From assembly GCA_030608565.1 (NCBI GenBank), contig JAUWDY010000004.1, forward strand, positions 14,103 through 78,102: a stretch of 64,000 nucleotides of DNA, written 5' to 3'. The notes below the pieces were generated by a model. It saw only the letters and a program-made list of their open reading frames with translations, was not told the DNA's origin and searched no databases. The position numbers were made by a program, and so were the translations under genes. The DNA comes from Candidatus Bathyarchaeota archaeon. Lineage in GTDB: Archaea > Thermoproteota > Bathyarchaeia > Bathyarchaeales > Bathyarchaeaceae. How positions within the stretch are numbered: position 1 is the first letter of the stretch; each line of letters begins with the position of its first letter. This document shows positions 1,528 to 61,782 of the stretch, one piece after another.

Positions 1528-1713
1528 ATGGTATGTCAAAAGCACAGCAAGCGTTGCATGCATGCCCAGTGGTTCGGGGGCCTTTATGTGGATACCACCA
1601 CTTCCACGATAGGATTCGGTGTTGGGTCATATGCTTTTTGGATGATAATACTCGGTGTTGCTGTAACAGCTCTGGGCGTTGTTTTATTTGTTGTATTGCG
1701 GAACCGAACGTGA
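1528..1713 (+). CDS. small hypothetical membrane protein (start uncertain, possibly the ATG inside tgcATGcATGc at 1558/1562)
   Basis: ORF-track 61 aa with one clear hydrophobic helix (YAFWMIILGVAVTALGVVLFVVL). No recognisable family. Confidence 0.3.
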   Translation: MVCQKHSKRCMHAQWFGGLYVDTTTSTIGFGVGSYAFWMIILGVAVTALGVVLFVVLRNRT

Positions 1714-1720
1714 AAAAAGG

Positions 1721-1837
1721 CTATGTGGTTTTTTCTTCTCTGCCGTAAACCATGTATAAAAAGGCTAAAAATAACACGAGAAAGGCTACTACCATCATGA
1801 TGTTGATGATAATCGTGAAGTACGCTGCTATGTCCAT
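1721..1837 (-). CDS. very small hypothetical membrane peptide (38 aa)
   Basis: Own translation: MDIAAYFTIIINIMMVVAFLVLFLAFLYMVYGREEKTT, a single TM helix. Below the ORF-track size cutoff. Confidence 0.25.
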   Translation of the reverse strand: MDIAAYFTIIINIMMVVAFLVLFLAFLYMVYGREEKTT

Positions 1838-1875
1838 GACGGGTCCCTATCCCCTTATTTTTACAAGACACCTAT

Positions 1876-2286
1876 TTAAGGTGTAACCTTTTTCCACTCC
1901 TCTATCAAAGAGTCATACAGTTGGTCATTTTCCTCCACCAAATCATAAATTTCTAGGGCTTCCGCCAGCTTTTGTGCAATAAGATGATAACACAAATGAA
2001 TTTTCCTATTCATCGCACGGAAGTAAAAATCGTCGCAGGAACAAAAATCAGCGGCCGGCATGACAAGGTATTCTCGCTCTTTACCGACCACAATCCAAAC
2101 GACCCTACCACTCGGCTCAAAAACGTATTTTTTTATTCTTCTTTCGTTTAAGGCTTCCCAAGCTTTCGTAAATCGCGAGCCAAACACTGTGGAAAGTCGA
2201 CTGAGATGCGCTTTTATCACTCGGTTTTTCATTTTAGCTTCTTTGCAAACGTGTTTGAGCACTTCGGTCTCCGATGCTTTTTTCAT
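1876..2286 (-). CDS. SWIM zinc-finger domain protein
   Basis: CxCxnCxH signature in DFCSCDDFYFRAMNRKIHLCYHLIAQK near the C-terminus of a 136-aa ORF. Confidence 0.6.
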   Translation of the reverse strand: MKKASETEVLKHVCKEAKMKNRVIKAHLSRLSTVFGSRFTKAWEALNERRIKKYVFEPSGRVVWIVVGKEREYLVMPAADFCSCDDFYFRAMNRKIHLCYHLIAQKLAEALEIYDLVEENDQLYDSLIEEWKKVTP

Positions 2287-2496
2287 AGGTCTCTCTGTTA
2301 ACTATAATGTGAAAAATATAATAGCATTTATGCATGTGCTATTGCTCTGTCTCTTTGAAGATAATGGAATGTTATGATTTTCTATCTTTACAACCATTTA
2401 GAAAATAAAGTTCAGTTTAAGGAGTCTGAAGTGCGATCTTGAGGAGGCGTTGTTGTCGTTGTGTCTTCCCTAGTTTCGCTGAGCCTTTCTTTTTTC

Positions 2497-4709: not shown

Positions 4710-4781
4710 TAAGTCTATGCTGTTTGCGCGCGCAATTGTATGAAAGAGAGTTTTCGGTAAATCTTCTTGTTTAGGGCATTG

Positions 4782-6903: not shown

Positions 6904-7182
6904 TTAATGTGTGCGTGCATTCGCTAAATTCGATTTACTATAAATATTAACTAATCGTCGTTTTTTGCTGTGGCTGAGCGTTTTGATCTCTCGTTCTCTC
7001 TTCATAGCCTCGCTACGACTGTCGAACTCCTCCACGTACACTATCTTCTCAAACTGATGTACCCTCGTATACTTGGCGCCTTGACCCTTTCTATGCCGTT
7101 CAACTCGCCGTTCCACGTCCTTGGCGTATCCAGTGTAATAACTGCCATCTTTGCAAAGAAGGATGTAGACATAGTAAGGCAT
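6904..7182 (-). CDS. GIY-YIG nuclease superfamily protein (UPF0213-like)
   Basis: MPYYVYILLCKDGSYYTGYAKDVERRVERH..G.GAKYT is the classic GIY-YIG N-terminus. 92 aa. Confidence 0.85.
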   Translation of the reverse strand: MPYYVYILLCKDGSYYTGYAKDVERRVERHRKGQGAKYTRVHQFEKIVYVEEFDSRSEAMKREREIKTLSHSKKRRLVNIYSKSNLANARTH

Positions 7183-7390
7183 CCATCATCAACTCACAGC
7201 CAATAAACAAACCTAACAGTCTCTTTTAAAGAGAGTCGTATACTGCACAAGATTGGAATGCATGAATGCACTAAGGGAATTTCTACAGCGGAAAATAATA
7301 GACCTTAAATGTTCACATCGGGGGATGTCTTCACACTTATGTCCATAGAACCTCACACCCTGCAAGACAAGTTCGGAATGTTAAATCTAT

Positions 7391-7555
7391 CCCCCTACCC
7401 CCCCTCTATAGGGGGGTCTATAAAAGAGAGAATGAGTGACTGCGAAAAAAATTATAGGGGGGGCTATAGGGGGTCTATAAAAAGAGAGATACACACAAAT
7501 AACGTGACAAAACGGATAACCTCAAAACTCAACACTAACGAAACAGACACACTTT
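7391..7555 (+). repeat. copy A (internally duplicated) of a promoter-like G-tract/TATA core plus C/A-rich leader; no downstream ORF
   Basis: ccccctaccccccctctataggggggtctataaaagagag, then aaaaaaattatagggggggctatagggggtctataaaaagagagatacacacaaataacgtgacaaaacgg... Alignable by eye to 20257-20357 (reverse) and 53275-53441. Confidence 0.7.
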
Positions 7556-11682: not shown

Positions 11683-11958
11683 TTCATTTCCTCATATCAT
11701 AAGGGTTTATGGTCATAATATTTATTTAAAAGGCTCTAAGCAAGCGTAGACGCTTAAACTGCATGCATGCATGGAAGAAGACTGAAAAATCTCTATAACT
11801 TCCTAGCACTTCAAAGTAAACTTTATATAACTTCTCCACACCATCGTTGAATAAGTGATCATAATGGGTGACTATGTTCCACGAAGCTGATTTCTTTAGC
11901 ACCCATTTTATATTGCTATTTGATTTTTCCAATAACGTGTACTTGAGGAGAAGTTAAG

Positions 11959-13401
11959 ATGTCAGAGTCTGGAATTACCGTTAAAAAATCTGAACGATTT
12001 TCTGAGTGGTATACCCAAGCTGTGCTAAGGTCAGAATTGGCTGATTACGCTCCCATCAAAGGTTGCATCATCTTTAGAGAAGATTCATATGCCATGTGGG
12101 AAAAAATTCAAGATTATTTCAACAAAAAAATAGGAGAAACAGGGCATAGAAACGTGTATTTTCCACTTTTTGTACCTGAAAGTCTGTTGAAAAAGGAAGC
12201 CGAACATTTTGAGGGATTTGTCCCAGAGTGCGCATGGGTCACAGTTGGCGGAGATACTGAATTAGAAGAAAGACTTGCCATAAGACCCACGTCAGAAACA
12301 ATAGTGTACATAATGTATAGGAAATGGATAAAAAGCTGGAGAGATCTCCCCCTCAAATTGAATCAATGGTGCAACATCGTAAGATGGGAAACCAAAGCGA
12401 CAAAGCCATTCTTAAGAACAAGAGAGTTTCTTTGGCAAGAAGGGCACACGGCACACGCGACAAAAGAAGAAGCAGACAAAGAAGTCATGGATATTCTAGA
12501 AATCTATAAGAACTTGGCAGAAAATCAGCTAGCTATTCCAACGTTGATTGGGAAAAAAACCGAGAGTGAAAAGTTCGCAGGGGCTCTTTATACAACAACC
12601 TTTGAGGCTATAATGCCCGATGGAAAAGCCCTCCAAATGGGAACGTCGCACAACCTTGGACAGAACTTCTCTAAAGCATTTGAAATCAAATTCATTGGAG
12701 AGGATGAAAAGAACCATTACGTTTGGCAAACATCTTGGGGTATAACTACGCGTCTGATCGGCGCGTTAGTGATGGTTCATGGCGACGACAGAGGATTGGT
12801 GCTTCCTCCTGAAATAGCTCCATATCAAGTTGTAATCATTCCGATATTTTACAAAGAAATTGAAAGAAATTTGATCTTAAACAAAGCTAAAGAAGTTTTC
12901 AAAAAGTTAAAGGAAAACGGAATATCAACCGTTCTTGATGACAGAGCAGAATACACGCCTGGATGGAAATTTAACCAATGGGAATTAAAAGGCGTGCCGA
13001 TAAGAATCGAAATCGGGCCAAGAGATATAGAGAAGAAACAAGTAGTCGCTGCTAGAAGAGACACTTTTGAAAGAATCGCTGTGAAAGAAGAAGAGTTAAT
13101 CAACACTATGAATGGGGTGCTGAAAGAAATTCAAGACAACCTTTTCAATCGGGCGAAGAAATTCCTTGATGAACACATTACCTCGGTAAAGACTTATGAT
13201 GAATTTAAGAAAGTTCTAAGAAGGAAGGGTGGATTCATCAGAGCTTGCTGGTGTTCAAATCAAACATGCGAAGAAAAGATAAAGGAAGAAACTGGTGCAA
13301 CCATTAGATTGATTCCATTTGAAAAGGAAGAAATATTCTCAACTTGTGTTTACTGTGGCGGTGAAACAAAAGAAGTGGTCTACTTCGCTAGAGCGTATTA
13401 G
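11959..13401 (+). CDS. proS: prolyl-tRNA synthetase (archaeal/eukaryotic type with C-terminal zinc domain)
   Basis: 480 aa. FSEWYTQAVLRSELADY start, class II motifs (RPTSET, FLRTREFLWQEGHT, GTSHNLGQNFSK) and C-terminal CxxC..CxxC. Confidence 0.95.
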   Translation: MSESGITVKKSERFSEWYTQAVLRSELADYAPIKGCIIFREDSYAMWEKIQDYFNKKIGETGHRNVYFPLFVPESLLKKEAEHFEGFVPECAWVTVGGDTELEERLAIRPTSETIVYIMYRKWIKSWRDLPLKLNQWCNIVRWETKATKPFLRTREFLWQEGHTAHATKEEADKEVMDILEIYKNLAENQLAIPTLIGKKTESEKFAGALYTTTFEAIMPDGKALQMGTSHNLGQNFSKAFEIKFIGEDEKNHYVWQTSWGITTRLIGALVMVHGDDRGLVLPPEIAPYQVVIIPIFYKEIERNLILNKAKEVFKKLKENGISTVLDDRAEYTPGWKFNQWELKGVPIRIEIGPRDIEKKQVVAARRDTFERIAVKEEELINTMNGVLKEIQDNLFNRAKKFLDEHITSVKTYDEFKKVLRRKGGFIRACWCSNQTCEEKIKEETGATIRLIPFEKEEIFSTCVYCGGETKEVVYFARAY

Positions 13402-13464: not shown

Positions 13465-13649
13465 TTGACTAAAGATACAATTCGAATGAAAGTTTGGCGC
13501 ATTATGGAAGAAAAAGGAATTACTAGCTTCCCTCGACCTGCATGCATGATGTGCAAGTTGTCGAAATTTTTCCTCAAAATGAATGGGATGTCCCAGTGGA
13601 TGTTATAGTCTCTCCAACAAGGGGCATTCGAAAATCTAGAAAAACATAA
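13465..13649 (+). pseudogene. 5-formyltetrahydrofolate cyclo-ligase family gene remnant (internal deletion plus frameshift)
   Basis: Frame 1 from TTG 13465 gives (M)TKDTIRMKVWRIMEEKGITSFPRPA, the family N-terminus with FPRP. A +2 frame from 13542 gives MHDVQVVEIFPQNEWDVPVDVIVSPTRGIRKSRKT, the family C-terminus (HD.Q.V...HDVP.D.IVTP). About 130 central residues are missing. The junction is ctgcatgcatgatg (13538-13551). Confidence 0.65.
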
Positions 13650-13759
13650 ATCACGTGATTCTGGAGGTTGGTCCTGCGCAACTAGTTGTCAGAAAAGAAA
13701 TAAATTCTGTGCATACATACCTTTTTATTCTTTCTCTTAGAAAAACCTCGAATGCCTAG

Positions 13760-17264: not shown

Positions 17265-17506
17265 ACTATTCAACCATGTATAGCTCTGTTTTGCTATTGT
17301 GTAATTAAATTTATGAACTAAAAATTCATATAGAAAAATGAATCTCACGCATGCATTCTTGAATTCAAGGCTTATACTTCTTAGGATGCCACAGCGCGTT
17401 TTGTCTCTTTTAGTAAGAGCTTGATGAAAACTTTTTATGGCACTTAGGCTCACGTTCTTAAAGCCGCATACGATGATAGACAGAATCAGAGGAGCAACAA
17501 AAAGCA

Positions 17507-18430
17507 TTGACTGAAATAAAGAAGACGGCGTCTCACGTTAAGACAACTATCTTCAGAATAGACACCGCGAGGAAAATCACCCAAGTTTGTTGCTTTCTGC
17601 TGCTCAACGCGATTGTATTCGGCCTGGGGCCCTGGCCCGTACTCCTTCCGATAGTCCAAAGTCCAGGAGTCCCTCAAAAAACGGTGAGCGACGCCTTTTC
17701 AGCTCTACAAGTAATGCTTTATCAGCGCATTTTTCCTTGGCTCCCCATAGCCTCATTCCTTTTAACTGCCGTCATTTTGGGTAGAGCCCTCTGCGGTTGG
17801 GTGTGCCCTTTTGGGTTCATCCAAGACTTGTTAGGGTATGTTAAGAAGAGACATACACGAGTTTCCTTAAGAACCCATGGAGGGATGCTTAAAGTCAAAT
17901 ATGGGGTTCTAGCGGCTGTCTTGTTTATCAGCGTGACATTATCTATATCTCTGGCTTTGGGTGTGGGCAAAAGTTATGAAAGTGCTATAGGCGTGTTCGC
18001 TCCGGCTCCGTTCAATGCGTTAAGCCCTGCTGACACGCTTTTTGCTATTCTGCCTCGAATGGTTTTAATGGTTGTTTACGTCCCTGAAGTATTGATTGTT
18101 GGGATTCTCTCTGACCCACTTTTCTGGGTTCGACTTACCATAATGATAGCCATAATAGTTTTGGCTGTTTATGTTCCGAGAAGTTGGTGTCGATACTTTT
18201 GTCCCATTGGGGCATTATTGGCGGTGCTAAATAGATTCACCTTTCTCGGCTTGAAGAGAGATCCGTTGAGGTGTACTAGAGCTGGTTGTCGCATGTGTGT
18301 GGATGCATGCCCGATGATGGTTCGCATCCTTGAATTGCCTTGGGAGAAATTCACTGATTCTGAATGTATATATTGCCTGAAATGCGTTGACGCATGTCCA
18401 ACAAGAGCCATAAAGCTGAAATTCCCATAG
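17507..18430 (+). CDS. membrane-bound 4Fe-4S binding protein (NapH/MauN/NosR-like)
   Basis: Two CxxCP membrane-edge motifs (GWVCPFGFIQD, RYFCPIGALL) and two ferredoxin-type clusters (CTRAGCRMCVDACP, CIYCLKCVDACP). Confidence 0.75.
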   Translation: MTEIKKTASHVKTTIFRIDTARKITQVCCFLLLNAIVFGLGPWPVLLPIVQSPGVPQKTVSDAFSALQVMLYQRIFPWLPIASFLLTAVILGRALCGWVCPFGFIQDLLGYVKKRHTRVSLRTHGGMLKVKYGVLAAVLFISVTLSISLALGVGKSYESAIGVFAPAPFNALSPADTLFAILPRMVLMVVYVPEVLIVGILSDPLFWVRLTIMIAIIVLAVYVPRSWCRYFCPIGALLAVLNRFTFLGLKRDPLRCTRAGCRMCVDACPMMVRILELPWEKFTDSECIYCLKCVDACPTRAIKLKFP

Positions 18431-41064: not shown

Positions 41065-41077
41065 TCAAGTCTCAAGT

Positions 41078-42669: not shown

Positions 42670-42720
42670 TCATCTGATCCTTCCAAGTTTGGCAAAAAAG
42701 AGGGAAAAGGGAGAAAAGGC

Positions 42721-43272: not shown

Positions 43273-43371
43273 ATTATTACCTCACTAACTGTTGGTCCGA
43301 GAGATTTATTTAAAGGTACTAGTACTCTGCACTTTCGATTCGTTGAACTATCTACAAACCCAGTGTCCATT

Positions 43372-43476: not shown

Positions 43477-43478
43477 AT

Positions 43479-44675: not shown

Positions 44676-44680
44676 TCAAC

Positions 44681-45682: not shown

Positions 45683-45794
45683 CACGCCGCTTACCAAGAT
45701 AGACACCAACTGGTTATATGTAGTGGGAAACATCCAAGAGTCAGATATAATCTTTTCTTGCTCTGCATGCATGAACGTTAATCGATATTTTCAG

Positions 45795-45996
45795 TGAACA
45801 TTCATTTTTGAACTGTTCAGTTCTTGTGAATGGTTAAATTCACTCGGAGGAACAAAATTTAATGTTCAGAATAGGTGAAACGTGCAAAAAGGAACATTCA
45901 AAAACTGAGAGACAAAAGGATGGAACCGTATTCACTCTTTATTCGCGATTTAAACGTTTATTCTCTGTTTTCCGTTCTTTCCATTTTGAACATTCG
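45795..45996. promoter_or_regulatory. array of TGAACATTCA-like boxes and related palindromes upstream of the ABC-2 operon
   Basis: tgaacattca 45795-45804; tgaactgttca 45809-45819; gtgaatggttaaattcac 45826-45843; ttaatgttca 45859-45868 (reverse orientation); ggaacattca 45891-45900; tgaacattcg 45987-45996. Confidence 0.5.
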
Positions 45997-46146
45997 CAAA
46001 ATGATTCCTAACTACAAAGAAGGAATGATCATTCTCTGAAAATGAGCATCCTCTAAAACTAATGCATGCATGCAAAATGGTTGGTATGCTCAAATTTTTC
46101 CAATACAAGGATTCTAAGTGCACGCCAAAAAAGAAAAAGTGAACGG

Positions 46147-46569
46147 TTATTTTGGTTCTAACTCTTTGTGTTCTTTCAGCCATTTTGAAACTGCTTTGTA
46201 TATTGGATGTGCGCTGACATTAATTATCGGGACTTTTACATTTGTCTCTTTTATAATAATCACTTCTTTAAACTCAGGCATTAGTGCCCATTCTACTGAT
46301 GACCAATGAACCGAGCCTTCTAATTTTTCTTTGATGACATCCTTTGTTTCAAGCATCGTCGAACTAGAAAATACAAGCCCTCCCACCCAAAGTAAGGGGT
46401 CACCCAATCCACCCGGTTCCACACCTAAACTCTGAAGTTTCACCAAATCGTCTAAAGCATACTTGACTATTTCATGTATGACGATTTTTTTCCAAGGCTG
46501 GTAAACAACTTCCACCATTTTCAATCCCATTAATGACAGTTGAGAATCCTTTTTATGGTTTACTAGCAC
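46147..46569 (-). CDS. hypothetical protein
   Basis: 140-aa ORF with a plausible globular sequence. No motif recognised and the start is uncertain. Confidence 0.4.
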   Translation of the reverse strand: MLVNHKKDSQLSLMGLKMVEVVYQPWKKIVIHEIVKYALDDLVKLQSLGVEPGGLGDPLLWVGGLVFSSSTMLETKDVIKEKLEGSVHWSSVEWALMPEFKEVIIIKETNVKVPIINVSAHPIYKAVSKWLKEHKELEPK

Positions 46570-46715
46570 GTGCTAACTGTCTTGACCAAACGTTTCTTGG
46601 CTTTCACTAGATCACGCAAAATAATTCTAAGGGGATATCTTGCTTTAGCAACCATGCCTTAAGTGGACAAAAAGAGAGGATGATGTTGAAAATGTTTTCA
46701 CTGGTCCGTCAGATT

Positions 46716-47093
46716 CTATTTCGATTTCCAAAGCCCGTGGATGCTGCAGTATTCTCTTGCCTCTATGTTCTCCGCTGTGGTTTCGAACTCTGCTTCGGGC
46801 TTGTCTTCTGGTTCTAAGAATTTTCTGCAGGTTTTGCCGTCGGCGACTATTTCTATCCACTCAATGTAATGCTTTTGCTCCATGGGATGCGGAACACTGC
46901 CAACCTTAACCTTCACTTTGTTCCCGATCTTTTCTATTACTGGAACATGTTTTTCCAAGCCAACGTCTTCGATTTTTTCTGTAAGTAGTTCCATTGGTTG
47001 CCCGCAGCAGACGAGTTGTCCTACTCCGGTGTGTATGACTTCGACGATGTTGCCGCAGATGTTGCATTTGTAAATTTGCTTTAGTTCGGTCAT
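46716..47093 (-). CDS. dfx: desulfoferrodoxin (2Fe superoxide reductase)
   Basis: N-terminal desulforedoxin site [12 protein letters not shown]...LVCCGQPM. Centre II ligands HVPVIE...[13 protein letters not shown]...CSIHGLW. Confidence 0.9.
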
Positions 47094-47371
47094 TCGATTA
47101 TCTCCTCAACTTCTTCTTTACCTTTTTCCAACTCTTCAACTTGTTCCTTATCTTCTTTTAGCAGTAAGGTTTGAAACTCTCCTACATGCGTTTTCTCTTC
47201 TTTAGCCACATCAAGCAGAATCTTTTTGATGCCTTCGTTATCCGTCGCTGCTGCCAGTTGTTCATATAGGCTTATTGCGTCCAGTTCAGCTATCACTGCA
47301 ACTCTTAGTATTTCACGGTCCAGATACTTCTTCGAAACTTTCTCTAACTGTATAGGTATTTGGGATAACAT
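47090..47371 (-). CDS. small ferritin-like (EncFtn/rubrerythrin-diiron-like) protein
   Basis: 93 aa. [12 protein letters not shown] and [11 protein letters not shown] (ExxH) helices. Its stop overlaps the dfx ATG (translational coupling). Confidence 0.6.
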
Positions 47372-47552
47372 CTTCTCAAACCACCTTCTTGACTTTTACG
47401 TTCGCAACTATCTATTATTTTTTCTGTCAAGCATAAGAGTAAGCCTCAAACATGGCAGGACGTACGTCAACACATACTCCGTCGCCATTACATTCGTCAA
47501 GCCAACCTTAACATCTAACAGCTTCATCTTGCCTCCATCAATCCTGAATGTA

Positions 47553-48032
47553 TTATCCTCCGGGAGCCCCGTGAAATGGAACGTTCTTCCAGAGAACTTC
47601 CCACCAGTCTTCCTCGGTTATAGTTTCTCCTCGAACAAGAATTTCCAGAACTTCCTTCAAGAGTTGATGATGTCTTTTTTCATCCAGCGATATTGCGTTT
47701 AAGAGAAGTTTGACATTCTTGTTTTCAATGTTAGGCAGTACCTTGCTGATTTTTTTAATGAGCTCTGCTTCCATGTGCATATGCTTTTCCACAAGTTCTC
47801 TTTGCTTGTCTAGATTCTCTTGTGTGAGCGCAGGGAGAACGCTCGTTAGCAAACTAATGGCTGCACCGTACATTTCTGCATGTTTCAGGGAATCTAGGGA
47901 TATTCCTTTCAGAACTCCTTTCACAGCTGGATTTTCTATTTCACCTAAGGCTCCATTTACCGAATTTACAATCTCATTTTCAATGTTAACCTGCTTCTTC
48001 AGAAAGCCTACTAATTCATCCTTTGAAATCAA
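47553..48032 (-). CDS. ferritin-like (rubrerythrin/DUF2202-like) four-helix protein
   Basis: LDSLKHAEM, EKHMHMEAEL, LDEKRHHQLL motifs. Paralog of 26981-27451. Confidence 0.55.
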   Translation of the reverse strand: MISKDELVGFLKKQVNIENEIVNSVNGALGEIENPAVKGVLKGISLDSLKHAEMYGAAISLLTSVLPALTQENLDKQRELVEKHMHMEAELIKKISKVLPNIENKNVKLLLNAISLDEKRHHQLLKEVLEILVRGETITEEDWWEVLWKNVPFHGAPGG

Positions 48033-48067
48033 ACACTCACCTCCTTTTCTCTAATTGTTTCACGATT

Positions 48068-48592
48068 TTACGCTTGACTCTCCTTAGACGGCGCTGGGGG
48101 CGTAAACACACGTGCTGCAAGTTCTTTGTCGATCATAAACAGTCCATTACCTTCTTTTCCAACAAGTTTCAACTTAGAGATAATATCATTGTCGTTAGCT
48201 TCCTCTTCGATCTGTTCGGTAACAAACCATTGGAGAAAGATGTTCGTGGCATGATCCTTTTCCTTAACAGCAAGGTCAACGAGATCATTAATGCACTTTG
48301 TAATGAACCTCTCATGTTTCAGAGTTTTTTCAAACATATCTAAAGGCGATCCGAATTCTGCAGGTGGCTCTGCAACAGCCATGAGCTTTACCTGTCCGCC
48401 TTGGTCATTGATGTAGTCGTAGATTTTCATGGCATGTGTCATCTCTTCCTGATATTGAACCATAAACCAATTGGCAAATCCCTTCATTCCAATGAAGGTG
48501 CTGTGGGCAGACATGGACAGGTACAGATATGCTGAATAAAGCTCGTTGTTGATCTGCATATTCAGCGCCTTTACCATTCTCTTATTTAGCAT
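48068..48592 (-). CDS. ftn: ferritin (non-heme, FtnA-like)
   Basis: LNMQINNELYSAYLYLSMSA...FMVQYQEEMTHAMKIYDYI...FLQWFVTEQIEEE: ferroxidase-centre residues in the canonical spacing. Confidence 0.9.
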   Translation of the reverse strand: MLNKRMVKALNMQINNELYSAYLYLSMSAHSTFIGMKGFANWFMVQYQEEMTHAMKIYDYINDQGGQVKLMAVAEPPAEFGSPLDMFEKTLKHERFITKCINDLVDLAVKEKDHATNIFLQWFVTEQIEEEANDNDIISKLKLVGKEGNGLFMIDKELAARVFTPPAPSKESQA

Positions 48593-48607
48593 ATTGTCAC
48601 CTCCTTT

Positions 48608-49795
48608 TCAGTTTGTTAAGTTATGTTCTTTATGTTTGTTTAAGATTTCATCAGCTAATCTGTCTAACGCCCCAAAATCTTGTTCTTTTGGAAACCCTTT
48701 TATGACAACGGGCTCAAGCAACTCAACCTTTAGGTTAGGCAGCATCCGTGTTATTTGTTCCACCATCTTGCCACCCCAGCCATAAGACCCGATTATTGAT
48801 GCAAACTTCAGTTTCGGCCTCAGAGCATTTGCAAGGTAAACCGCATAAACAACATTTGGATGTGGTCCAACTAAGACTGTGGGTGATCCTATCACAATTG
48901 TAGCGGCGTCCACTAATGCCATTGCTAATTTTCCAATATCTGTTTTGGCCAGATTGAATTGTTTCACGGTTATGCCTCTTTCAACCAAAGCAGCAACGAA
49001 GTATTCCACCATCTTCTTGGTGCTACCGTGCATTGAAATGTATGGCAATACAACGATGTTTTTAGGCGGGGCATAAACCCAATCTTTGTACGCTTCAAGT
49101 ATGAACTCTGGCTTATCATATAGCGGACCGTGACTTGGCGCTATCACATCTATTTGTATATCTCTTATTTTCTCTAGATTCTTCTGAATTACCGTTTTAA
49201 ACGGCATCATAATCTCCGCATAATACCTCTTAGCCGCCTCGTAAACTGTTGCTTCATCGGTTACATACAAATCAGATGTTGCAAGATGAGAACCTAAGAA
49301 ATCGCAGGTGAAGAGTATCTTGTCTTCCCTTAAGTATGTGAGCATTGTTTCTGGCCAATGAACCCAAGGAGCATGGATAAACTCTAAGGTTTTATCCCCC
49401 AACGAGAGGGTTCCCCCGTCTTCTACAGTCACAATTTTGCTTTCAGGAATCAGGAGCAGGTCCATGAGCAGCCTTTTACATTTAGGAGTTGCAACAACCA
49501 GGGCATTTGGATACATCTTTAATATTTGAGGCAGTGCCCCTGAATGATCTTGTTCCGCATGATTTGCAACAACATAATCTATGTTTTTAACATCTAGCTG
49601 ATTTAGGTTATCTATCAGCACACTTGCCATAGTTGGGTCAACAGTGTCTATCAGAGCCGTTTTTTCGCTGCCCTTGACTAGATAAGCGTTATAACTTGTT
49701 CCATCAGGAAGCGGAATAAGCTCGTCAAAAAGTCGCCTATCCCAATCTACCGCTCCAACCCAGTGAATGTTTGCCTTTAGTTCCCTCGGCTTCAT
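48608..49795 (-). CDS. fprA: flavodiiron protein (FprA, A-type flavoprotein: metallo-beta-lactamase-like plus flavodoxin domains)
   Basis: NSYLV-type start (YNAYLVKG), HAEQDHSGALP (HxExDH), then C-terminal flavodoxin-like VVLPYISMHGSTKKM. Confidence 0.9.
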   Translation of the reverse strand: MKPRELKANIHWVGAVDWDRRLFDELIPLPDGTSYNAYLVKGSEKTALIDTVDPTMASVLIDNLNQLDVKNIDYVVANHAEQDHSGALPQILKMYPNALVVATPKCKRLLMDLLLIPESKIVTVEDGGTLSLGDKTLEFIHAPWVHWPETMLTYLREDKILFTCDFLGSHLATSDLYVTDEATVYEAAKRYYAEIMMPFKTVIQKNLEKIRDIQIDVIAPSHGPLYDKPEFILEAYKDWVYAPPKNIVVLPYISMHGSTKKMVEYFVAALVERGITVKQFNLAKTDIGKLAMALVDAATIVIGSPTVLVGPHPNVVYAVYLANALRPKLKFASIIGSYGWGGKMVEQITRMLPNLKVELLEPVVIKGFPKEQDFGALDRLADEILNKHKEHNLTN

Positions 49796-49802
49796 TTCCT
49801 AT

Positions 49803-49964
49803 TTATTCCACCTTTTCAAACTGATCTTTCGTTACTCCGCAAACTGGGCAGACCCAGTCATCCGGCAGTTCTTCAAACGGAGTTCCAGATGGTATTCCAG
49901 AGTCAGGATCACCCTTCTCTGGGTCGTATATATACCCGCAAACAGTGCATCTGTATTTGATCAT
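49803..49964 (-). CDS. rub: rubredoxin (53 aa)
   Basis: Own translation: [53 protein letters not shown] (CxxCG...CPxCG). GGAGG lies 8 nt upstream of the ATG. Below the ORF-track cutoff. Confidence 0.9.
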
Positions 49965-49965
49965 T

Positions 49966-50484
49966 TTATCGCCTCCTTTCTTCTTTTATGTAAGTTGGAG
50001 CCGCCTTAGGAGTCACACCCCTCTTCATATCATGGTAATAAGCATAAGTCATAGGTTCATCATTAGCTAAAATTTCGGCATCAACCAGTTTACCAATAAA
50101 AATGATGTGTGTATTTGCATCAACTTCTCTAATCACTTCAGCCTCTACGTATGCAACTGCATGATCCAAAACTATTGGTGCACCAGTTCTGCCAACTTTA
50201 TAATTTATTCCTTTGAATTTGTCTATGTCCCTTCCAGATCTGAATCCGAAATGACCTATAAACTTCAATGGCGTATTCTTTGAAAGAACCGAAACGGCAA
50301 AGGCGTTGCTTTCTCGGATAAACTCGTTCGTGAAGTTCTGCTTATTAATACTCACCGCTATTGTTGCAGGTTCAGATGTTACTTGAAATACCGTATTGGC
50401 AATCTGACCGTTAAAACTATCACTTTTTCTAGAAGTTACGACATACAAGCCGTAACTTATTTTATGCAAAGCTTCAAGATTCAT
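49966..50484 (-). CDS. flavin reductase-like FMN-binding domain protein (flavoredoxin/Hrb N-domain-like)
   Basis: [11 protein letters not shown]....[24 protein letters not shown] is typical of the flavin reductase (Flavin_Reduct) fold. 172 aa. Its stop lies 1 nt before the rubredoxin ATG. Confidence 0.8.
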
Positions 50485-50531
50485 GTTTCAACCTCAAATT
50501 AATTTGAGATATCCTACGTCATTCATCTTTG

Positions 50532-50957
50532 TCATCCTTTTACATGCTTTAGATTATAACTTATTTTCACACCAGCCTGCTCGAAAAGTTTCCCAACAGG
50601 ACAGTTTTCGCGAGTTAGTTCAAAAATTCTTTGAATTCTGTCTTTTCTAGCATCACTTTTCACGGTTATGTTAAATTTAGCTGAGGCTACTGTGCCAGTT
50701 GCTTCAGATTTTAGGGCGCGAAGCTCAACTTCCAAATCTTTCAGCTGAATCCTCATCTTTTTTGCAGTTAATGAAAAAATAGTGGCAAAGCATCCAGCGA
50801 AGCTCATAACTCCAAGCTCTAGAGCAGTGGGCCCCATATCTGTGCCGAGTTCAGGTGGTAGATCCAAACAAACGCTGTGAGCTCTTCCGTTATCAACTGC
50901 CACTCTTAAATCCCGTATGAGTTTAGCTTTTGAAACTATAGAATTCAAACACTTCAC
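50532..50957 (-). CDS. OsmC/Ohr-family peroxiredoxin-like protein
   Basis: GPTALELGVMSFAGCFATIF and RENCPVGKLF: the two conserved Cys contexts of OsmC. Confidence 0.75.
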   Translation of the reverse strand: MKCLNSIVSKAKLIRDLRVAVDNGRAHSVCLDLPPELGTDMGPTALELGVMSFAGCFATIFSLTAKKMRIQLKDLEVELRALKSEATGTVASAKFNITVKSDARKDRIQRIFELTRENCPVGKLFEQAGVKISYNLKHVKG

Positions 50958-51045
50958 CTCCTTCTTTACTTACCGTTTTTTCCTCACATGTTTCATTTTC
51001 ATTGTTCTTTGTTCTAATTTAAACACCATTCTACAACTTAAAAAC

Positions 51046-51258
51046 CTAGAGGACTAGTACGAAGCTCTTTCTGCATAGGAACCAGTCTACGCATTCACAG
51101 CCTTCTTGAAGACGTTTTTCCGCTACTTCCTGCGTCGCCGTTGGAGGAAATATAACGTCATCACATGGTTTCCAGTTTGCTGGAGTAGCAACTTTATATT
51201 TATCCGCAGTCTGCAACGCATCCACCCATCTTAAAATCTCCTGCATGTTTCGCCCAGC
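51046..51258 (-). pseudogene. C-terminal remnant of an archaeal-type 2-Cys peroxiredoxin
   Basis: AGRNMQEILRWVDALQTADKYKVATPANWKPCDDVIFPPTATQEVAEKRLQEGCECVDWFLC matches the Prx C-terminus (GRN.DEILR.V.ALQ......VA.PANW.PGD.VI.PP....E.A..R.....C.DWWFC). A TAG stop lies immediately upstream (51261-51259). Only about 50 nt remain before the next gene, so the first roughly 150 residues with the peroxidatic Cys are absent. Confidence 0.7.
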
Positions 51259-51710: not shown

Positions 51711-51969
51711 TTATTACGCCTCAACTTTCTTTCCGTTTAATTTCCTCTTGCAGTAGACGCAACAACTGATTACTTTGGAAGGTTACATAAAAGTTTGGTG
51801 CGTGCGCGATACTGTCAAGTCTTCTCATCAAAACGAATCAGATTCCAACGTCAATTGAGATTCATTTGCTTCAAACAAACTAGCGCGCGCAGAGGAGTAA
51901 CCGATAAAAACTGAGAACTTGAATACTTCTCCTCTAATTTAAGTTACTTCAGAAGATGGTGGCTACCGT

Positions 51970-53148: not shown

Positions 53149-53274
53149 GGAAACGTCCGCAAACTGTTTATTTATTTTCTGAGGCCTTCATGATTCATAG
53201 GCTCATATCATAGGATACAGAATATTGGTTATCTATTTGACGACATTGTATACATGCTTATTCAGTACGGACTA

Positions 53275-53441
53275 CCCCCTCAGGTATAGGGGGGCTATAG
53301 GGGGGTCTAATAAGAGAGAGACACGCCCAAACAACACAACAAACACAAAACCATACAGAAAACACAGCACATATAAACAACCACGCATTATATCGAACAT
53401 TCCACGAGGAACCAACCGTGACAGAACAAACAACAACCACC
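53275..53441 (+). repeat. copy C of the promoter-like G-tract/TATA core plus about 120-nt C/A-rich leader, directly upstream of the zinc-ribbon gene
   Basis: ccccctcaggtataggggggctataggggggtctaataagagagagacacgcccaaacaacacaacaaacacaaaacc... Core aligns with copy A (tataggggggGctataggggGtctaTaaAaagagaga). Confidence 0.7.
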
Positions 53442-59172: not shown

Positions 59173-59178
59173 GCCTTC

Positions 59179-60498
59179 TTGACCTTGATCGCAAAGGAAA
59201 CCAATCTGCTCCTGACAGGATTCACCATAATCTTCTTCTTGGGTTTCCTTCTTGCCAACCCCATATTAATCTGCGCTTCATTCATTCCACTTTTCATATA
59301 TTTCATGAGAGCTTTCATTGCTCCTCCGGAAGTGAAAATCAAAAAAACTGGTCTGCCGAGTTCTGCAAGGCTCGACGAAACAATAGAGGTGAAAATAGCC
59401 GGCGAGATAACCGGCGGTCCTGGTGCAGTTGTCATCTGTGATGAGGTCCCAGAGCCTTTTCAACTCGTTGAAGGCAACAACTTCAAAATAGTCTCTAAGG
59501 GATTCAAGGATAAAGCATTCAGTTTTTCCTATAAGATTCAATGCACCAAATGTGGCACCTACAGGCTTGGGGTAGGTTGGGAAACGAGACATATTGTTGG
59601 ATTAACTCGAACTCATGTCTCAATTGGGGAGACTGAACAGTTGAGAGTGTTCCCCATATCGCCCAAAATAAGAAAAATGAAGCTACCTCTGCGTACGACC
59701 CAGAGGATACATCCTAGTGAAGGTATCGCCAAGATCGGTCCGTTGAGCACCGACTTTAAGGAGATTCGCAACTATTCCTATGGTGACCCATTCAAGATTA
59801 TCAACTGGAAAGCCTCAGCTAGGGCTGCAGGCCGTGGAAAGCTGTATCCAATGGTTAATGAATATGAACGAGAAGGAAAGCTGTCGATCTGGCTATTTTT
59901 GGACGCCAGTCCCGACCTTAGAGTTGGAACTTCATTTGAAAACGCCTTAGAATATGGTATACGCGCAGCATACAGCGTCTCTTACTATTTTCTGAGTAAA
60001 GGCTACAGCTTAGGCATGTACATCTATAATCATCAAGGAGAGACACTTCATTTTGATACGGGAAAAAAACAGTTCATCAGAATTGCCGACAACCTTCTCA
60101 AACTAACCCCTCCAGAAGTTGGATTACAGGTTTTCTGGGACGAGGGCTTTTCAAAAGCCGTAGAACGGAATCAGAAGTATTTGATCCCCCAATCTCCAGG
60201 GATAGCAATTATTACTCATGTGACCCCGAGCAATTGGGGTGATCTCCTAAATGGACTGAGGAAAATCTTGGTCTACAAAAGAAGAAAAAGGCAGCCTAAT
60301 ATCTTGCTAATCAACACTCTGCCTTACGATATTGTCCCAAAGGTTAATGATTGGGAGATATTTGCTGCTAAGATGCTTGATGCAGCCAGTAGAAGTTTTT
60401 CCAACAGGCTGCGAAATCTAGGAGCGACCGTGCTAGACTGGAACCCAAAAACGGAGAGTATGGAAATCACGCTGTTAAATACTATATGGTTGAGGTGA
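59179..60498 (+). CDS. DUF58 (vWA-like) protein, usual MoxR partner
   Basis: Two N-terminal TM helices, FKEIRNYSYGDPFKIINWKASAR (the DUF58 hallmark R.Y..GD....I.WK..AR), then a vWA-like LFLDAS segment. Confidence 0.8.
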   Translation: MTLIAKETNLLLTGFTIIFFLGFLLANPILICASFIPLFIYFMRAFIAPPEVKIKKTGLPSSARLDETIEVKIAGEITGGPGAVVICDEVPEPFQLVEGNNFKIVSKGFKDKAFSFSYKIQCTKCGTYRLGVGWETRHIVGLTRTHVSIGETEQLRVFPISPKIRKMKLPLRTTQRIHPSEGIAKIGPLSTDFKEIRNYSYGDPFKIINWKASARAAGRGKLYPMVNEYEREGKLSIWLFLDASPDLRVGTSFENALEYGIRAAYSVSYYFLSKGYSLGMYIYNHQGETLHFDTGKKQFIRIADNLLKLTPPEVGLQVFWDEGFSKAVERNQKYLIPQSPGIAIITHVTPSNWGDLLNGLRKILVYKRRKRQPNILLINTLPYDIVPKVNDWEIFAAKMLDAASRSFSNRLRNLGATVLDWNPKTESMEITLLNTIWLR

Positions 60499-60505
60499 AA
60501 TATCC

Positions 60506-61312
60506 TTGAAATTGACAAAAATAACGCCAGTGATGCTACAATTCACTGTTATCGTATTAATGAGTGTGGCTGCCTCTTACACCTTTCAGCATACCGAGAC
60601 CACATATCAAATAAATGGGCTATGCTTCTACCGCTACTTGGCATACATCATTACCGTTTTTCTTGGCTACATATGCTTCTCTAAATACAAGAAATATATT
60701 GCTCTAGCCTTCTCTATTGGGCTTTCTGCAGTGGCACTCTCTCCCATCGGTCATGAAGCCATAGAGTTGTTCCCATTGATAGTTCCTTTTTTAGCTGTGC
60801 TGATGGGAGTCACCACGATCTTGATTGTCCCAAGCTCTAGGGGTAGAGGATTCTTTGAGTTTCTTGTAGTACTAATTCTGCCTGCTATTTTGGCGGAGTC
60901 ACGGATAGGAGGGTCATTTCGACTACTTGCGACCATAGAATCCATCAGCTATTATGAACTTTCAGCCGTAACCGTTAGCATTGTGGGAGGATGCTTCTTT
61001 CTTAGATATGCGACCTTGGCAAGATTAAGTAGCCTTGAACTTTTGTCTAATGGAGGCAACAAAAAAGATGTGGCCGAGGTTAGCAGGCGGTGCAACATCC
61101 TAATCAGTCTCATTGTCATTAGCGCTTCTGGAATAGCCGCGTTTTTAATGGTCGCAGCACCCATCGTTGCGGATGTTCTTCGCGCTGCAGCTGTTACGCT
61201 ACCACTTTACGTCCTCGGCTTAGCATTGGGTGCTGGAATTGCTGTAACAACGATTTTCTACATTTTCCAGCTTTCTCAAGAGCAAACCACGTACACGCTT
61301 CACACAAAGTAG
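60506..61312 (+). CDS. hypothetical multi-pass membrane protein (TTG start)
   Basis: 268 aa, about 8 TM helices. Last gene of the cluster. Confidence 0.5.
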   Translation: MKLTKITPVMLQFTVIVLMSVAASYTFQHTETTYQINGLCFYRYLAYIITVFLGYICFSKYKKYIALAFSIGLSAVALSPIGHEAIELFPLIVPFLAVLMGVTTILIVPSSRGRGFFEFLVVLILPAILAESRIGGSFRLLATIESISYYELSAVTVSIVGGCFFLRYATLARLSSLELLSNGGNKKDVAEVSRRCNILISLIVISASGIAAFLMVAAPIVADVLRAAAVTLPLYVLGLALGAGIAVTTIFYIFQLSQEQTTYTLHTK

Positions 61313-61782
61313 ACGCTGCTGTACATACGATAATAACAGAAGGACTTGACGTAACACTAGATTCATAAACCGTGTACTCCTAGCTACCAAGTATACCACA
61401 AAAACAGAGTGAAACCGCCACCATGCGCTATATGCTAAATTAGGCTCACTCGATTTCTCATATGAAATGCGAGGGGATATCAACACTCTAGGGGTTAGAG
61501 AACCTGATATCAACTAAAAAAGGAGAAACAAGAGGTAAAAATTCAAGCATGCATGAAAATTTCTTCCATAGGTATTAAGATTTGATGCAGCAAACATAAT
61601 GAATGATGTAATGTGCGTGCGAAACTTGTCTTGTTCAAATGGTTCACTAATAGAAAGGACTAGCCCAATTTTGGAGGAAACGTCAGAGAGTTGATATAAT
61701 GATTCATTTCTTCACTTTAGTTCCTAGGATCATCGGCTCTTTGTCAATTCGTTGCTAATTTAGGACGAACAAGAAAATGGAG

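Follow-up and report, generated by a model that had tools for sequence, protein, structure and literature searches.

The window, the whole 64-kb stretch of DNA that was analysed, carries short, perfect, self-complementary repeats in which pyrimidines and purines alternate. Most are of the form (CATG)2-3.5, and a minor kind consists of (GC)4 and variants with one transition. Using a maximal-run scan, we found 18 (CATG)n-register tracts of at least 8 nt, where the original prediction had at least 15 loci. Its coordinates were correct to 1–6 nt, except that the locus placed at 32039–32050 lies at 32029–32037; a single locus at 39764–39787 proved to be two tracts, 39769–76 and 39778–87, within a 24-nt alternating purine-pyrimidine run. 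Also overlooked were the (GC)n tracts, whose behaviour parallels that of the CATG tracts. The tracts and the segments associated with them are listed below, with L numbers for the comparison loci.

1555–1565: (CATG)n tract TGCATGCATGC, 11 nt, between the ORFs 568–1446 and 1876–2286.
4725–4734: (GC)n tract TGCGCGCGCA, convergent gap between the CBS and XPD genes; empty site of the 3.7-kb insert of L141.
6907–6920: alternating tract ATGTGTGCGTGCAT, 2 nt downstream of the GIY-YIG stop codon; compared with L141 and L138, it forms the right junction of the GIY-YIG insert.
11760–11773: (CATG)n tract, 14 nt, between the divergent promoters of CDP-alcohol phosphatidyltransferase and ProRS.
13539–13548: (CATG)n tract, 10 nt, within a window-specific segment of ~300 nt downstream of ProRS.
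13708–13720: degenerate tract TGTGCATACATAC, edge of the ~300-nt extra segment; its L141 orthologue is GCATGCAT.
17349–17356, 18303–18310 and 37467–37474: 8-nt matches within called genes, judged to be chance.
27641–32372: 4.7-kb variable segment with HTH regulators, a membrane protein, a RelA/SpoT-like gene and zinc-ribbon ORFs; absent from L002.
29233–29243: (CATG)n tract, 11 nt, convergent gap, 3 nt past the stop of the minus-strand gene 29247–30299.
30703–30712: (CATG)n tract, 10 nt, between the end of the RelA/SpoT-like gene and a small zinc-ribbon ORF.
32029–32037: 9-nt (CATG)n tract, flanked by a small zinc-ribbon ORF and by the promoter of the RelA/SpoT-like gene.
37216–37225: 10-nt (CATG)n tract in the gap where AMP phosphorylase and a 62-aa Cys-rich ORF (37232–37420, minus strand) converge, 6 nt beyond the stop of that ORF.
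37226–39701, minus strand: variable segment with the 62-aa Cys-rich ORF, IscU, IscS, DsrE and TusA, with a CATG tract at one end and a (GC)n tract at the other.
39702–39713: (GC)n tract TGCGCGCGCACA, a three-way breakpoint.
39769–39787: two CATG tracts one G apart, between a TATA-like box and the hemerythrin/DUF438 gene.
42396–42404: 9-nt (CATG)n tract (13 nt in L001–L008), 1 nt beyond the stop of cytochrome b5.
42405–43377, minus strand: ferritin (Dps-like) and cytochrome b5 cassette, which includes 105 non-coding nt upstream.
43378–43387: (CATG)n tract, right junction of the ABC cassette, with three alternative neighbours among strains.
43388–46061, minus strand: 2.7-kb ABC-transporter cassette, found in the window and L004 but not in L001, L003, L005, L007 and L008.
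43467–43475 and 45764–45773: inner tracts of the ABC cassette, a tight bracket around its two genes.
46062–46074: (CATG)n tract, 13 nt, left junction of the ABC cassette.
51798–51890: 76-nt insert flanked by GCGCACGC (51798–51808) and GCGCGCGC (51883–51890).
61547–61555: (CATG)n tract, 9 nt, convergent gap 61312–61783.

The cluster of tracts coincides with a region of oxidative-stress and iron-sulfur genes.

About 4–5 tracts would be expected by chance in the window. The four 8-mer words of the register occur there 51 times, against 3.5–5.3 expected from Markov models of orders 0–3, and CATGCATG has 13 copies where dinucleotide shuffles of the window gave 1.02 (shuffle maximum 3). When all 8-mers of the window were ranked by over-representation, the four (CATG)n words took the top four places, followed by GCGCGCGC/TGCGCGCG. 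The exact 11-mer TTCATGCATGC has the four copies first reported, at the same positions and on the same strands (0.11 expected in the window), but most of this excess is inherited from the tract enrichment itself. Other repeats are not enriched in the window, and alternating runs overall are only 1.2-fold enriched after CATG and GC words are removed.

All tracts of at least 9 nt are intergenic. Fourteen tracts lie wholly in intergenic DNA, which makes up a fraction of 0.19 when only ORFs of at least 100 aa are taken as genes (binomial P = 1e-7). A single further copy inside a coding sequence, at 18303–18310, had been acknowledged; there are two more, at 37467–74 in IscU and at 17349–56 in a called ORF of 242 aa. 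All three are minimal 8-mers, and the copies at 17349 and 18303 differ from non-tract sequence in L141 by point changes only. We judge them to be chance, matching the 4–5 tracts expected. Such in-gene copies at chance level, together with polymorphism in unit number between strains, are what one would see if the tracts were a coincidence of composition, or simple microsatellite slippage, and played no part in rearrangement. That reading is disfavoured, and we hold it to be highly improbable, given a ten-fold excess over Markov and shuffle nulls, an enrichment limited to CATG and GC repeats, and strain breakpoints that fall on the tracts to the nucleotide.

The predicted proximity to stop codons was borne out, with gaps of 3, 6, 1 and 3 nt to the gene ends at 29247, 37232, 42406 and 43479; the gene ending at 37232 is the 62-aa Cys-rich ORF, which was read by eye from the sequence and is in none of the ORF lists. 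Between 37.2 and 46.1 kb nearly all inter-operon gaps carry a tract, though not every one as first claimed, since the 13-nt convergent gap 41064–41078 has none. One alternative holds that tracts are cis-acting sites at transcription-unit boundaries, whether for dimeric binding of an abundant protein, as topological or transcriptional insulators or as 3'-end signals, and become recombination junctions secondarily, the identical 10–14-nt sequences in many intergenic regions acting as microhomology. It would explain the almost exclusively intergenic placement, the five tracts that lie 0–6 nt past a stop codon and others upstream of TATA-like boxes between transcription units, the hemerythrin-proximal tract between a TATA-like box and a start codon, and the clustering near oxidative-stress and iron-sulfur genes. 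It is harder to reconcile with tracts whose length (8–14 nt) and phase vary and whose palindrome centre is not fixed. The window tracts had no fixed distance to TATA boxes or promoters, start codons or stop codons, and convergent, divergent and tandem gaps carry them alike. No stable hairpins were found at tracts (-2 to -3 kcal/mol, no better than shuffled sequence), nor conserved flanks around them, and about one tract per 3.5 kb would imply several hundred such sites per genome.

The tracts are specific to one Bathyarchaeia lineage. Their density in the window is 2.8 per 10 kb, compared with ~0.25–0.4 per 10 kb in ~2 Mb of DNA from relatives, other phyla and related viruses, a set that included 80 loci of other genomes (1.2 Mb). 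Values were 0.26 per 10 kb for 46 metagenome loci of relatives (0.43 Mb) and 0.41 for 32 related viral contigs, and the sister genome CP070709.1 had no tracts in 21.8 kb. At orthologous genes of relatives, including a sister genome with 92% ThrRS identity, the tracts are absent, which again counts against conserved cis-acting sites.

Sister-strain contigs of the same lineage (~10 contigs, ~100 kb, 87–99% identity) differ from the window in structure, and the differences start and stop exactly on tracts; at syntenic loci, segments bounded by tracts are present in some strains and absent from others. All comparison sequences are metagenome assemblies. Assembly chimeras are an unlikely source of the junctions: repeats of 12 nt are too short to produce them, and the key junctions were seen again in samples independent of one another. 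For the ABC operon, the 76-nt filler and the 3.7-kb segment, there is one tract at the empty site and one per insert end when the site is filled. Five independently sampled contigs have the empty ABC site, ccattt-TGCATGCATGCA-atgaaaaatgg; the window and L004 have the filled one, ccattt-TGCATGCATGCAT-tagtttt ... taaatc-CATGCATGCA-atgaaaaatgg. A HAD gene is the third neighbour at this tract (L002 and L006), one of two tracts that have three alternative neighbours each among strains. The 76-nt insert corresponds to an empty site with a single tract in L001, L003 and L140, and all three copies of GCGCGCGC in the window are breakpoints. The L141 insert, phage-derived and terminase-bearing, splits the window's TTGCGCGCGCAAAC and ends in GCGCGCG and GCGCACG; in L005 an insert of ~290 nt, with a CATG tract inside it, lies between CGTGCGC and GCGCACG. 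At the three-way breakpoint, on GTACTTGTGCGCGCGCAAT, the window with L001 and L136, L002, and L004 each continue differently, and L002 and L004 have other DNA in place of segment 37226–39701.

Further junctions follow the same pattern. A deletion in L002 fuses the tract TGCATGCATGCAT to the 3' remnant of gene 27561–28700, inside former coding sequence. Breaks in L141 adjoin the tracts flanking ProRS, and the GIY-YIG insert has one end on an alternating tract. Of 33 breakpoint clusters overall, 9 are no more than 6 nt from a perfect tract, which is true of 0.7% of all and 3.2% of intergenic positions (P = 6e-7); alternating runs of 10 nt or longer coincide with 11 of the 33 (P = 8e-8). Tract length differs between strains by 4-nt steps where the flanks are 96–99% identical, and the tract pair at 39769–39787 differs in sequence and length in each strain. 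The tracts at 39778 and 42396 show no structural difference among the sampled strains, and four intra-operon gene gains or losses have junctions at the RBS-like GGAGGTGA or other short microhomology, not at tracts. Microhomology-based rearrangement may therefore be general here, with the tracts as its best microhomology. On the cis-site alternative, these four junctions would make recombination at any shared motif plausible, and at 11760 an 11-nt tract is kept in L141 at ~89% identity, where homology ends exactly. But among strains the tracts change faster than their flanks, and the L002 tract sits at a junction within former coding sequence; we consider that alternative rather unlikely.

What lies between the tracts is varied: ordinary operons, a phage fragment and unique non-coding DNA. 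The inserts have no terminal inverted repeats, shared termini or internal similarity, none recurs in the window or any locus, and no transposase or integrase was found in the window. These results, and the like behaviour of two different tract sequences, speak against the mobile-element role among the original suggestions, in which a family of transposable elements or a MITE with a 4-bp palindromic target would have left the tracts as target-site duplications or as footprints of excision. Such elements would account for tracts doubled on both sides of inserts and for short non-coding fillers of 76–290 nt between tracts; even so, we regard them as a decidedly improbable source.

The ferritin and cytochrome b5 unit has 83% nucleotide identity to DNA of another Bathyarchaeia species (L015/L017) exactly from tract to tract, including the 105 non-coding nt, and in that species the cassette has no tracts. 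A cassette that has tracts at both ends only here fits a further proposal, that the tracts are scars of restriction cleavage (^CATG, G^CGC; 5' overhangs) and repair. Each cycle of fill-in and blunt religation would lengthen the site by a second copy of the overhang (4 or 2 nt), and foreign or rearranged fragments ligated concurrently would leave tandem recognition sites at junctions. Both tract families are indeed stacked 4-bp palindromes whose periods of 4 and 2 suit duplication of a full-site or an inner 2-nt overhang. The two-unit minimal junction tract is the expected product of joining two filled-in ends, the L002 junction has a tract where the other strain has none, and the (GC)n variants GCGCACG and GCGTGCGC are CpG transitions, which would fit 5mC at GCGC. 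Yet CATG, TGCA, GCGC and CGCG are not avoided in the window (observed/expected 0.85, 1.01, 0.88 and 0.98), in contrast to GGCC and CCGG (0.57), and no tract-specific nuclease, recombinase or restriction-modification gene was found there. Fill-in of whole units would not leave the partial units (TG...CA) in which tracts often end, and with ~240 single CATG sites per 64 kb, scars alone do not account for the reuse of the same tract by several junctions. We therefore think this proposal improbable.

Since the tracts are the exact points of strain insertions, deletions and swaps, they look like simple recombination hot spots and not like ordinary regulatory sites. We favour, at somewhat better than even, the reading that they are hot spots at which DNA is broken and rejoined, and that they mark the borders of exchangeable gene cassettes and short fillers in this one Bathyarchaeia lineage. 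The original prediction had offered four roles and chosen none; it is supported in part, and directly so for its recombination site, as strain insertions, deletions and neighbour swaps end on tracts and inserted DNA has a tract on both sides. DNA would break within one tract and then join another. The repeat is self-complementary, so that one tract could pair with any other, in either orientation and any register, and such pairing would yield cassette integration, excision or replacement, tract-adjacent deletion and 4-nt length changes. One tract would be gained per integration, so tracts would accumulate at operon boundaries in variable islands such as 27–46 kb. As the agent of breakage we would place first fragility or cleavage at alternating purine-pyrimidine DNA, followed by microhomology annealing and ligation, then a hypothetical dedicated site-specific nuclease or recombinase, then a type II topoisomerase that cuts such DNA, with subunit exchange, and last a restriction enzyme with fill-in. 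Counting against break-and-rejoin hot spots, the origin of the first tracts and the gain of tracts at both ends of the ferritin cassette are unaccounted for, the window yielded no nuclease or recombinase gene specific to the tracts, and the five tracts 0–6 nt past stop codons could mean a role at transcript 3' ends.

The literature searched held no description of such tracts, in agreement with the original statement that no archaeal element of this kind had been described. Integrons have reportedly been found in Archaea (Ghaly et al. 2022). Like integron cassettes, the segments here have a recombination site at each boundary, with one copy when empty and two when occupied, and a single site, close past a stop codon, takes different cassettes in different strains. 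However, attC sites are imperfect inverted repeats of 55–140 nt in which R and L boxes are conserved; a neighbouring IntI integrase recombines them in the form of folded single strands, and the cassettes make up one oriented array. The tracts, by contrast, are 8–14-nt simple repeats without conserved flanks or an integrase in the window, and their cassettes lie in both orientations, scattered along the chromosome. In pdif (Xer) modules and dif-integrating elements, too, many short dyad-symmetric sites flank discrete modules in varied contexts. The pdif modules are recombined by host machinery and not by a module-borne gene, a further likeness to the tracts. The pdif sites of Acinetobacter plasmids are 28-bp XerC/XerD binding sites with a 6-bp spacer, an architecture the tracts lack, and here two unrelated sequences act alike.

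The dRS3 repeats, NIMEs and minimal mobile elements of Neisseria also combine a short lineage-specific repeat with filler (50–150 nt there) and strain-variable genes set between conserved ones, and dRS3/NIME repeats are insertion and recombination hot spots. The 20-bp dRS3 repeat serves a phage-encoded recombinase, and minimal mobile elements are transferred when, after transformation, the conserved genes on either side recombine homologously; neither route was in evidence at the tracts. REP and BIME sequences, which are gyrase cleavage sites and hot spots for rearrangement and IS insertion, are likewise extragenic, palindromic, lineage-specific, abundant and often at gene 3' ends, but REPs are 20–40-nt imperfect palindromes with stable hairpins, spread by RAYT transposases, unlike simple repeats of 8–14 nt with weak hairpins. 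Alternating pyrimidine-purine sequences are reported to suffer frequent breaks and deletions and to be cut preferentially by topoisomerase II; Z-DNA-prone DNA is reportedly unstable and favoured by type II topoisomerases (Spitzner et al. 1990; Wang et al. 2006). Both (CATG)n and (GC)n are strictly alternating. Those reports, in contrast, are eukaryotic or from E. coli, concern much longer repeats and mostly deletions, and include no genome-wide cassette punctuation in a single archaeal lineage; alternating runs as a class, with CATG and GC words set aside, are enriched only 1.2-fold here. The CATG and GC tracts look like a simple and undescribed kind of recombination hot spot.

Scanning the window directly for maximal (CATG)n-register runs of 8 nt or more gave 18 such tracts, a frequency of ~1 per 3.5 kb, with 12 of the 18 lying within 29–46 kb. 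The four 8-mers of this register occur 51 times against 3.5–5.3 expected under Markov models of orders 0–3, confirming the original prediction that the tracts are far above chance. In an unbiased ranking of all 8-mers in the window under the order-3 model, these words hold ranks 1–4, followed by GCGCGCGC (3 observed vs. 0.16 expected) and TGCGCGCG. CATGCATG occurs 13 times, compared with 1.0 in dinucleotide shuffles, and the 11-mer TTCATGCATGC was indeed found four times, an excess owed mostly to the tract enrichment itself. A general explanation by Z-DNA or alternating purine-pyrimidine sequence is weakened, since alternating 8-mers are only 1.2-fold enriched once CATG and GC words are removed. 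The (CRYG)2 variants are then ~2-fold enriched, consistent with mutated derivatives.

The proposed intergenic bias was upheld. No tract longer than 8 nt falls within a gene, and 14 tracts are fully intergenic (P = 1e-7 for an intergenic fraction of 0.19, counting only ORFs of at least 100 aa as genes). Inside genes there are three copies, none longer than the minimum of 8 nt, a number that fits chance; the one at 18303 had been reported, while those at 37467 and 17349 had been missed. At 17349 and 18303, a second sister genome (L141) aligns with non-tract sequence, with point differences only. The tract coordinates reported earlier also needed one correction, 32039–50 becoming 32029–37.

The host is a Bathyarchaeia (Bathyarchaeota) archaeon, as judged by ThrRS homologues, and the window is ordinary chromosome encoding ThrRS, ProRS, XPD helicase, an RPA-like protein and glutamate dehydrogenase, together with form III RuBisCO and AMP phosphorylase, IscS/IscU and a long oxidative-stress cluster. 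Scans of the window found no tRNA genes or Rfam families. Related contigs with an identical ferritin in different neighbourhoods (L001–L008) were aligned to it along with L140 and L141; comparative coverage is limited to 1.6–19.6 kb, 25.8–27.6 kb and 32.4–53.3 kb. Segments that differ between strains are as follows.

Window 43388–46061 (−): ABC-transporter operon, 2.7 kb; present in the window and L004, missing from five contigs from independent samples.
Window 51807–51882: 76-nt unique insert between GCGCGCGC and GCGCACGC.
L141 14239–17913: 3.7-kb insert with a phage terminase, splitting the window's TTGCGCGCGCAAAC; ends GCGCGCG and GCGCACG.
L005: insert of roughly 290 nt flanked by CGTGCGC and GCGCACG, with a CATG tract within.
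Window 6904–7182 (−): GIY-YIG gene, an insert relative to L141 and the closed sister genome L138; right junction on the alternating tract ATGTGTGCGTGCAT.

End points of insertions, deletions and replacements fall on tracts to the nucleotide, which supports the recombination site that the original prediction had listed among its options. The empty site of the ABC cassette reads ccattt-TGCATGCATGCA-atgaaaaatgg, and the filled site has TGCATGCATGCAT at its left junction and CATGCATGCA at its right. A HAD hydrolase gene is the third neighbour at this tract (L002, L006), so that tract 43378 has three alternative neighbours between strains. The same is true of tract 39702, GTACTTGTGCGCGCGCAAT, where three groups of contigs diverge: beyond it lie a TusA-DsrE-IscS-IscU operon (window, L001, L136), a rubredoxin-like gene (L002) or other DNA (L004). 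In L001, L003 and L140, the site of the 76-nt insert has a single tract. L002 lacks a 4.7-kb segment and carries, at the junction, a CATG tract fused to what is left of a gene's 3' part; in the window, that gene has no tract there. Homology to L141 stops exactly at a tract or its degenerate orthologue on either side of ProRS. The unit of ferritin and cytochrome b5 genes at 42405–43376 shares 83% nucleotide identity with another Bathyarchaeia species precisely from tract to tract; the conserved span takes in 105 nt of non-coding DNA upstream, and in the other species the unit has no tracts at its ends.

An automated tally gave 33 breakpoint clusters, nine of which are no more than 6 nt from a perfect tract (P = 6e-7); the share expected to be so close is 0.7% over all positions and 3.2% over intergenic ones. 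Of the 33, 11 coincide with purine-pyrimidine alternation extending over 10 nt or more (P = 8e-8), and all three copies of GCGCGCGC are breakpoints. Orthologous tracts vary between strains by 4-nt steps and transitions within flanks that are 96–99% identical. The number of units is polymorphic (9 vs. 13 nt; 12, 13 or 15 nt), but tracts have only 2–3.5 of them, and many are found in convergent gaps.

Tract density falls steeply outside this lineage:

Window: 2.8 per 10 kb.
Sister-strain contigs: 2–6 per 10 kb.
80 ferritin-sharing loci from many phyla (1.2 Mb): 29 tracts in all, roughly 0.25 per 10 kb.
46 metagenome loci with hemerythrin/DUF438 homologues of at most 77% identity (0.43 Mb): 0.26 per 10 kb.
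32 related viral contigs (0.37 Mb): 0.41 per 10 kb.

L138 (CP070709.1), with a ThrRS 92% identical, has no tracts in 21.8 kb, and L141, at 87–92% nucleotide identity, has two in 21.8 kb, one of them orthologous to window tract 11760. Because the ferritin is near-identical across phyla, its scan of the genome collection returned 80 mostly unrelated genomes, which we used as a negative control. The metagenome scan with the hemerythrin/DUF438 protein gave one close relative only. Exact-protein look-ups with five window proteins gave no match; one look-up matched the window's own strain only. Tracts are not in excess in viruses related through the L141 terminase, and (CATG)5 has six matches in the viral collection, all unrelated. 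The tracts are a lineage-specific recombination-junction repeat of unusual simplicity.

Could the tracts instead mark boundaries, as a bound site, an insulator or a 3'-end element, with microhomology use only secondary? Five lie 0–6 nt past stop codons and others 38–185 nt ahead of start codons, and where a TATA-like box is visible the tract is usually upstream of it, between transcription units. The distance to that box ranges from 0 to about 100 nt, site size is not fixed, and convergent gaps are occupied as well as divergent and tandem ones, which does not fit a transcription-factor operator. Cruciform or terminator hairpins were rejected, as the tracts fold at only −2 to −3.2 kcal/mol, with z-scores close to 0 and no gain over shuffled sequence. 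No tract stands beside the hemerythrin or ferritin orthologues in 126 loci. With such variable offsets, weak hairpins and no conservation at orthologues, the 3'-end, insulator and abundant DNA-binding-protein roles first suggested are not supported, and we consider this explanation, the main rival, unlikely.

The footprint of a mobile element, also suggested at first, found no better support. Inter-tract segments and inserts are unique sequences without common termini, and Pfam scans of 40 window proteins revealed no transposase, integrase or recombinase, so a MITE or other repeat family was rejected. No integrase or recombinase is among the gene calls of the related loci (L001–L008 and L136–L141), and no RAYT (Y1 HUH transposase) gene was seen in the small amount of sequence from this lineage, 64 kb in the window plus sister contigs totalling about 100 kb, all metagenome-assembled. 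A longer conserved element was likewise rejected, as the tracts have no flank motif in common; the sole recurring flank is CCTCTAAAA, three times, always around the ABC cassette. Avoidance of CATG, TGCA, GCGC or CGCG was not seen, and the window has no genes for a cognate type II endonuclease or methyltransferase. Its sole endonuclease-fold match is the Mrr_cat/ATP-cone protein at 32381–33220, with no specificity assigned. A methylation cluster, another option of the original prediction, is not supported either.

On balance, we think that the tracts probably are break-and-rejoin sites, at which DNA is broken in one tract and joined to another. A break would occur inside a tract, and the end would be rejoined to another tract; the repeat being self-complementary, any two tracts could anneal in either orientation and any register, which would account for how cassettes integrate, are excised and replace one another, for deletions on one side only and for length changes in 4-nt steps. 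Tracts would then pile up where cassettes pile up, as they do in 29–46 kb. Candidate agents are intrinsic fragility with microhomology annealing, a dedicated nuclease or recombinase, restriction followed by fill-in, or a type II topoisomerase; enzymes of this last class prefer alternating purine-pyrimidine DNA. Two findings count against a dedicated system: in the same strains, four intra-operon gene gains or losses lie at RBS-like microhomology rather than at tracts, and the window has no candidate enzyme gene. A more far-reaching version, which we offer only tentatively, is a previously undescribed archaeal cassette-exchange system with self-complementary (CRYG)n microsatellites as minimal recombination sites, free of orientation and register. 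Such repeats, (CATG)n and (CG)n, would do the work of attC or pdif sites with only 8–14 nt, and a nuclease, recombinase or topoisomerase activity particular to the lineage would cut and rejoin them. In this way strains would shuffle operons, single genes and fillers among themselves and capture them from foreign organisms, with one tract added at each event.

Several further features of the region were recorded.

Window 7380–7500 (−), 20317–20412 (+) and 53260–53350 (−): three copies of a second repeat family.
L138 about 11900–12030 and L141 about 11880–12010: the same family, conserved downstream of ThrRS.
Window 51801–51807, L141 about 17900 and L005 about 925: GCGCACG as a right-hand junction.
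Window 30335–30541, about 32070–32200 and 37232–37420 (all −): small Cys-rich ORFs in the tract-rich variable region, by eye.

The second family spans about 60–100 nt, with a G/T-rich stretch followed by TCTCTCTCTT and then TAGACCCCCCTATA(G)CCCCCC. In L001 and L140 the ThrRS side (7587) and the MFS side (53321) are connected through it, implying that recombination of one copy with another caused a large rearrangement. At (GC)n-type tracts, three independent inserts have GCGCACG at their right-hand junction; the L005 left junction, CGTGCGC, is its reverse complement. The (GC)n variants GCGTGCGC and GCGCGTGCGC are likewise CpG transitions, a pattern that may hint at 5mC methylation of GCGC. The 3.7-kb L141 fragment is virus-like, sits in the convergent CBS/XPD gap and encodes PBECR2, DUF2283 and a large terminase but no integrase; 32 IMG/VR contigs carry terminases related to it, with 53–78% identity. 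The GIY-YIG nuclease-domain gene is stand-alone (92 aa), between ThrRS and XPD.

The Dps-like ferritin (183 aa, 42721–43272, −) shows 86–94% protein identity in more than 80 genomes of Bathyarchaeia, Hadarchaeota, Methanocellales, Chloroflexota, Spirochaetota, Planctomycetota, Nitrospirota, Verrucomicrobiota and others, reflecting either exceptionally wide, recent transfer or extreme constraint. The oxidative-stress operon (46564–51258) has gained or lost single genes relative to L001, L003, L005 and L140 (LMW phosphatase, SDR, ferritin, flavin reductase, and peroxiredoxin with AsnC) at junctions of RBS-like GGAGGTGA or other short microhomology, not tracts; in the window only a remnant of the peroxiredoxin gene is left (51046–51246). 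Two of the Cys-rich ORFs look zinc-ribbon-like by eye and one is of 62 aa; they adjoin a RelA/SpoT-domain gene (30818–31906) and HTH regulators in a region missing in L002. Kept in L002 is the protein at 32381–33220 (−), which combines an ATP-cone, an Mrr-type restriction-endonuclease fold and a C-terminal helix-hairpin-helix (AF1548-like). Downstream of the ABC permease gene, the 80-nt spacer separating two tracts (43388–43466) forms a strong hairpin of TTTTAGAGGTT and AACCTCTAAAA (−13.6 kcal/mol, z = −4.5), and the motif TTTTAGAGG is also found after tract 46062. (CATG)3 offers ATG in all frames of both strands with no stop codon, and candidate ATG starts lie within tracts at the ABC ATPase ORF (45764–45773) and the rubredoxin-like gene (L002 3994–4005).

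To our knowledge, Bathyarchaeia are abundant and uncultured, and their gene exchange is largely unknown. If a self-complementary repeat of 8–14 nt suffices for cut-and-paste, no simpler cassette-junction signal would be known. The assembly of variable islands, here one of oxidative-stress and iron-sulfur genes, would have an explanation, as would the installation of a gene such as the ferritin, with its 86–94% identity across many phyla. The tracts would also serve as a sequence-only marker of recent gene gain and loss in metagenome-assembled genomes, and comparing tract-bearing with tract-free sister genomes would give a handle on the responsible enzyme.

Literature searches on archaea returned no such element, in line with the original prediction, and those on Bathyarchaeota palindromes and mechanistic precedents returned nothing relevant. 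Among known systems, integrons come close: like theirs, the tracts form one site if empty and one per end if filled, with alternative cassettes, as seen for the ABC cassette, the 76-nt insert and the 3.7-kb insert. However, attC sites are imperfect inverted repeats of 55–140 nt with R''/L''/L'/R' boxes, whereas the tracts measure 8–14 nt and have no flank motif, and no IntI-type tyrosine integrase adjoins them as it does an integron array. REP/BIME elements with RAYT are alike in genomic habit, but are 20–40-nt imperfect palindromes with stable hairpins, unlike the short tracts with their weak ones. MITE and IS copies share terminal inverted repeats or internal sequence, which tract-flanked inserts lack. 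Contingency-locus microsatellites vary in unit number, as tracts do between strains, but usually have at least 5–6 units in an ORF or promoter spacer, compared with 2–3.5 units here; DUS/USS are asymmetric 9–12-mers at about one per kb, also within genes, whereas the tracts are palindromic and sparser; and the 28-bp Xer/dif site, with two 11-bp arms and a 6–8-bp spacer, has no counterpart in tracts and flanks. Every structural comparison (length and architecture, recombinase, hairpins) with integrons, pdif/Xer modules, dRS3/NIME and REP/BIME failed, so the tracts belong to none of these four and yet act like them: as with attC, pdif/Xer and Neisseria dRS3/NIME, they flank exchangeable modules, and one copy becomes two on insertion.
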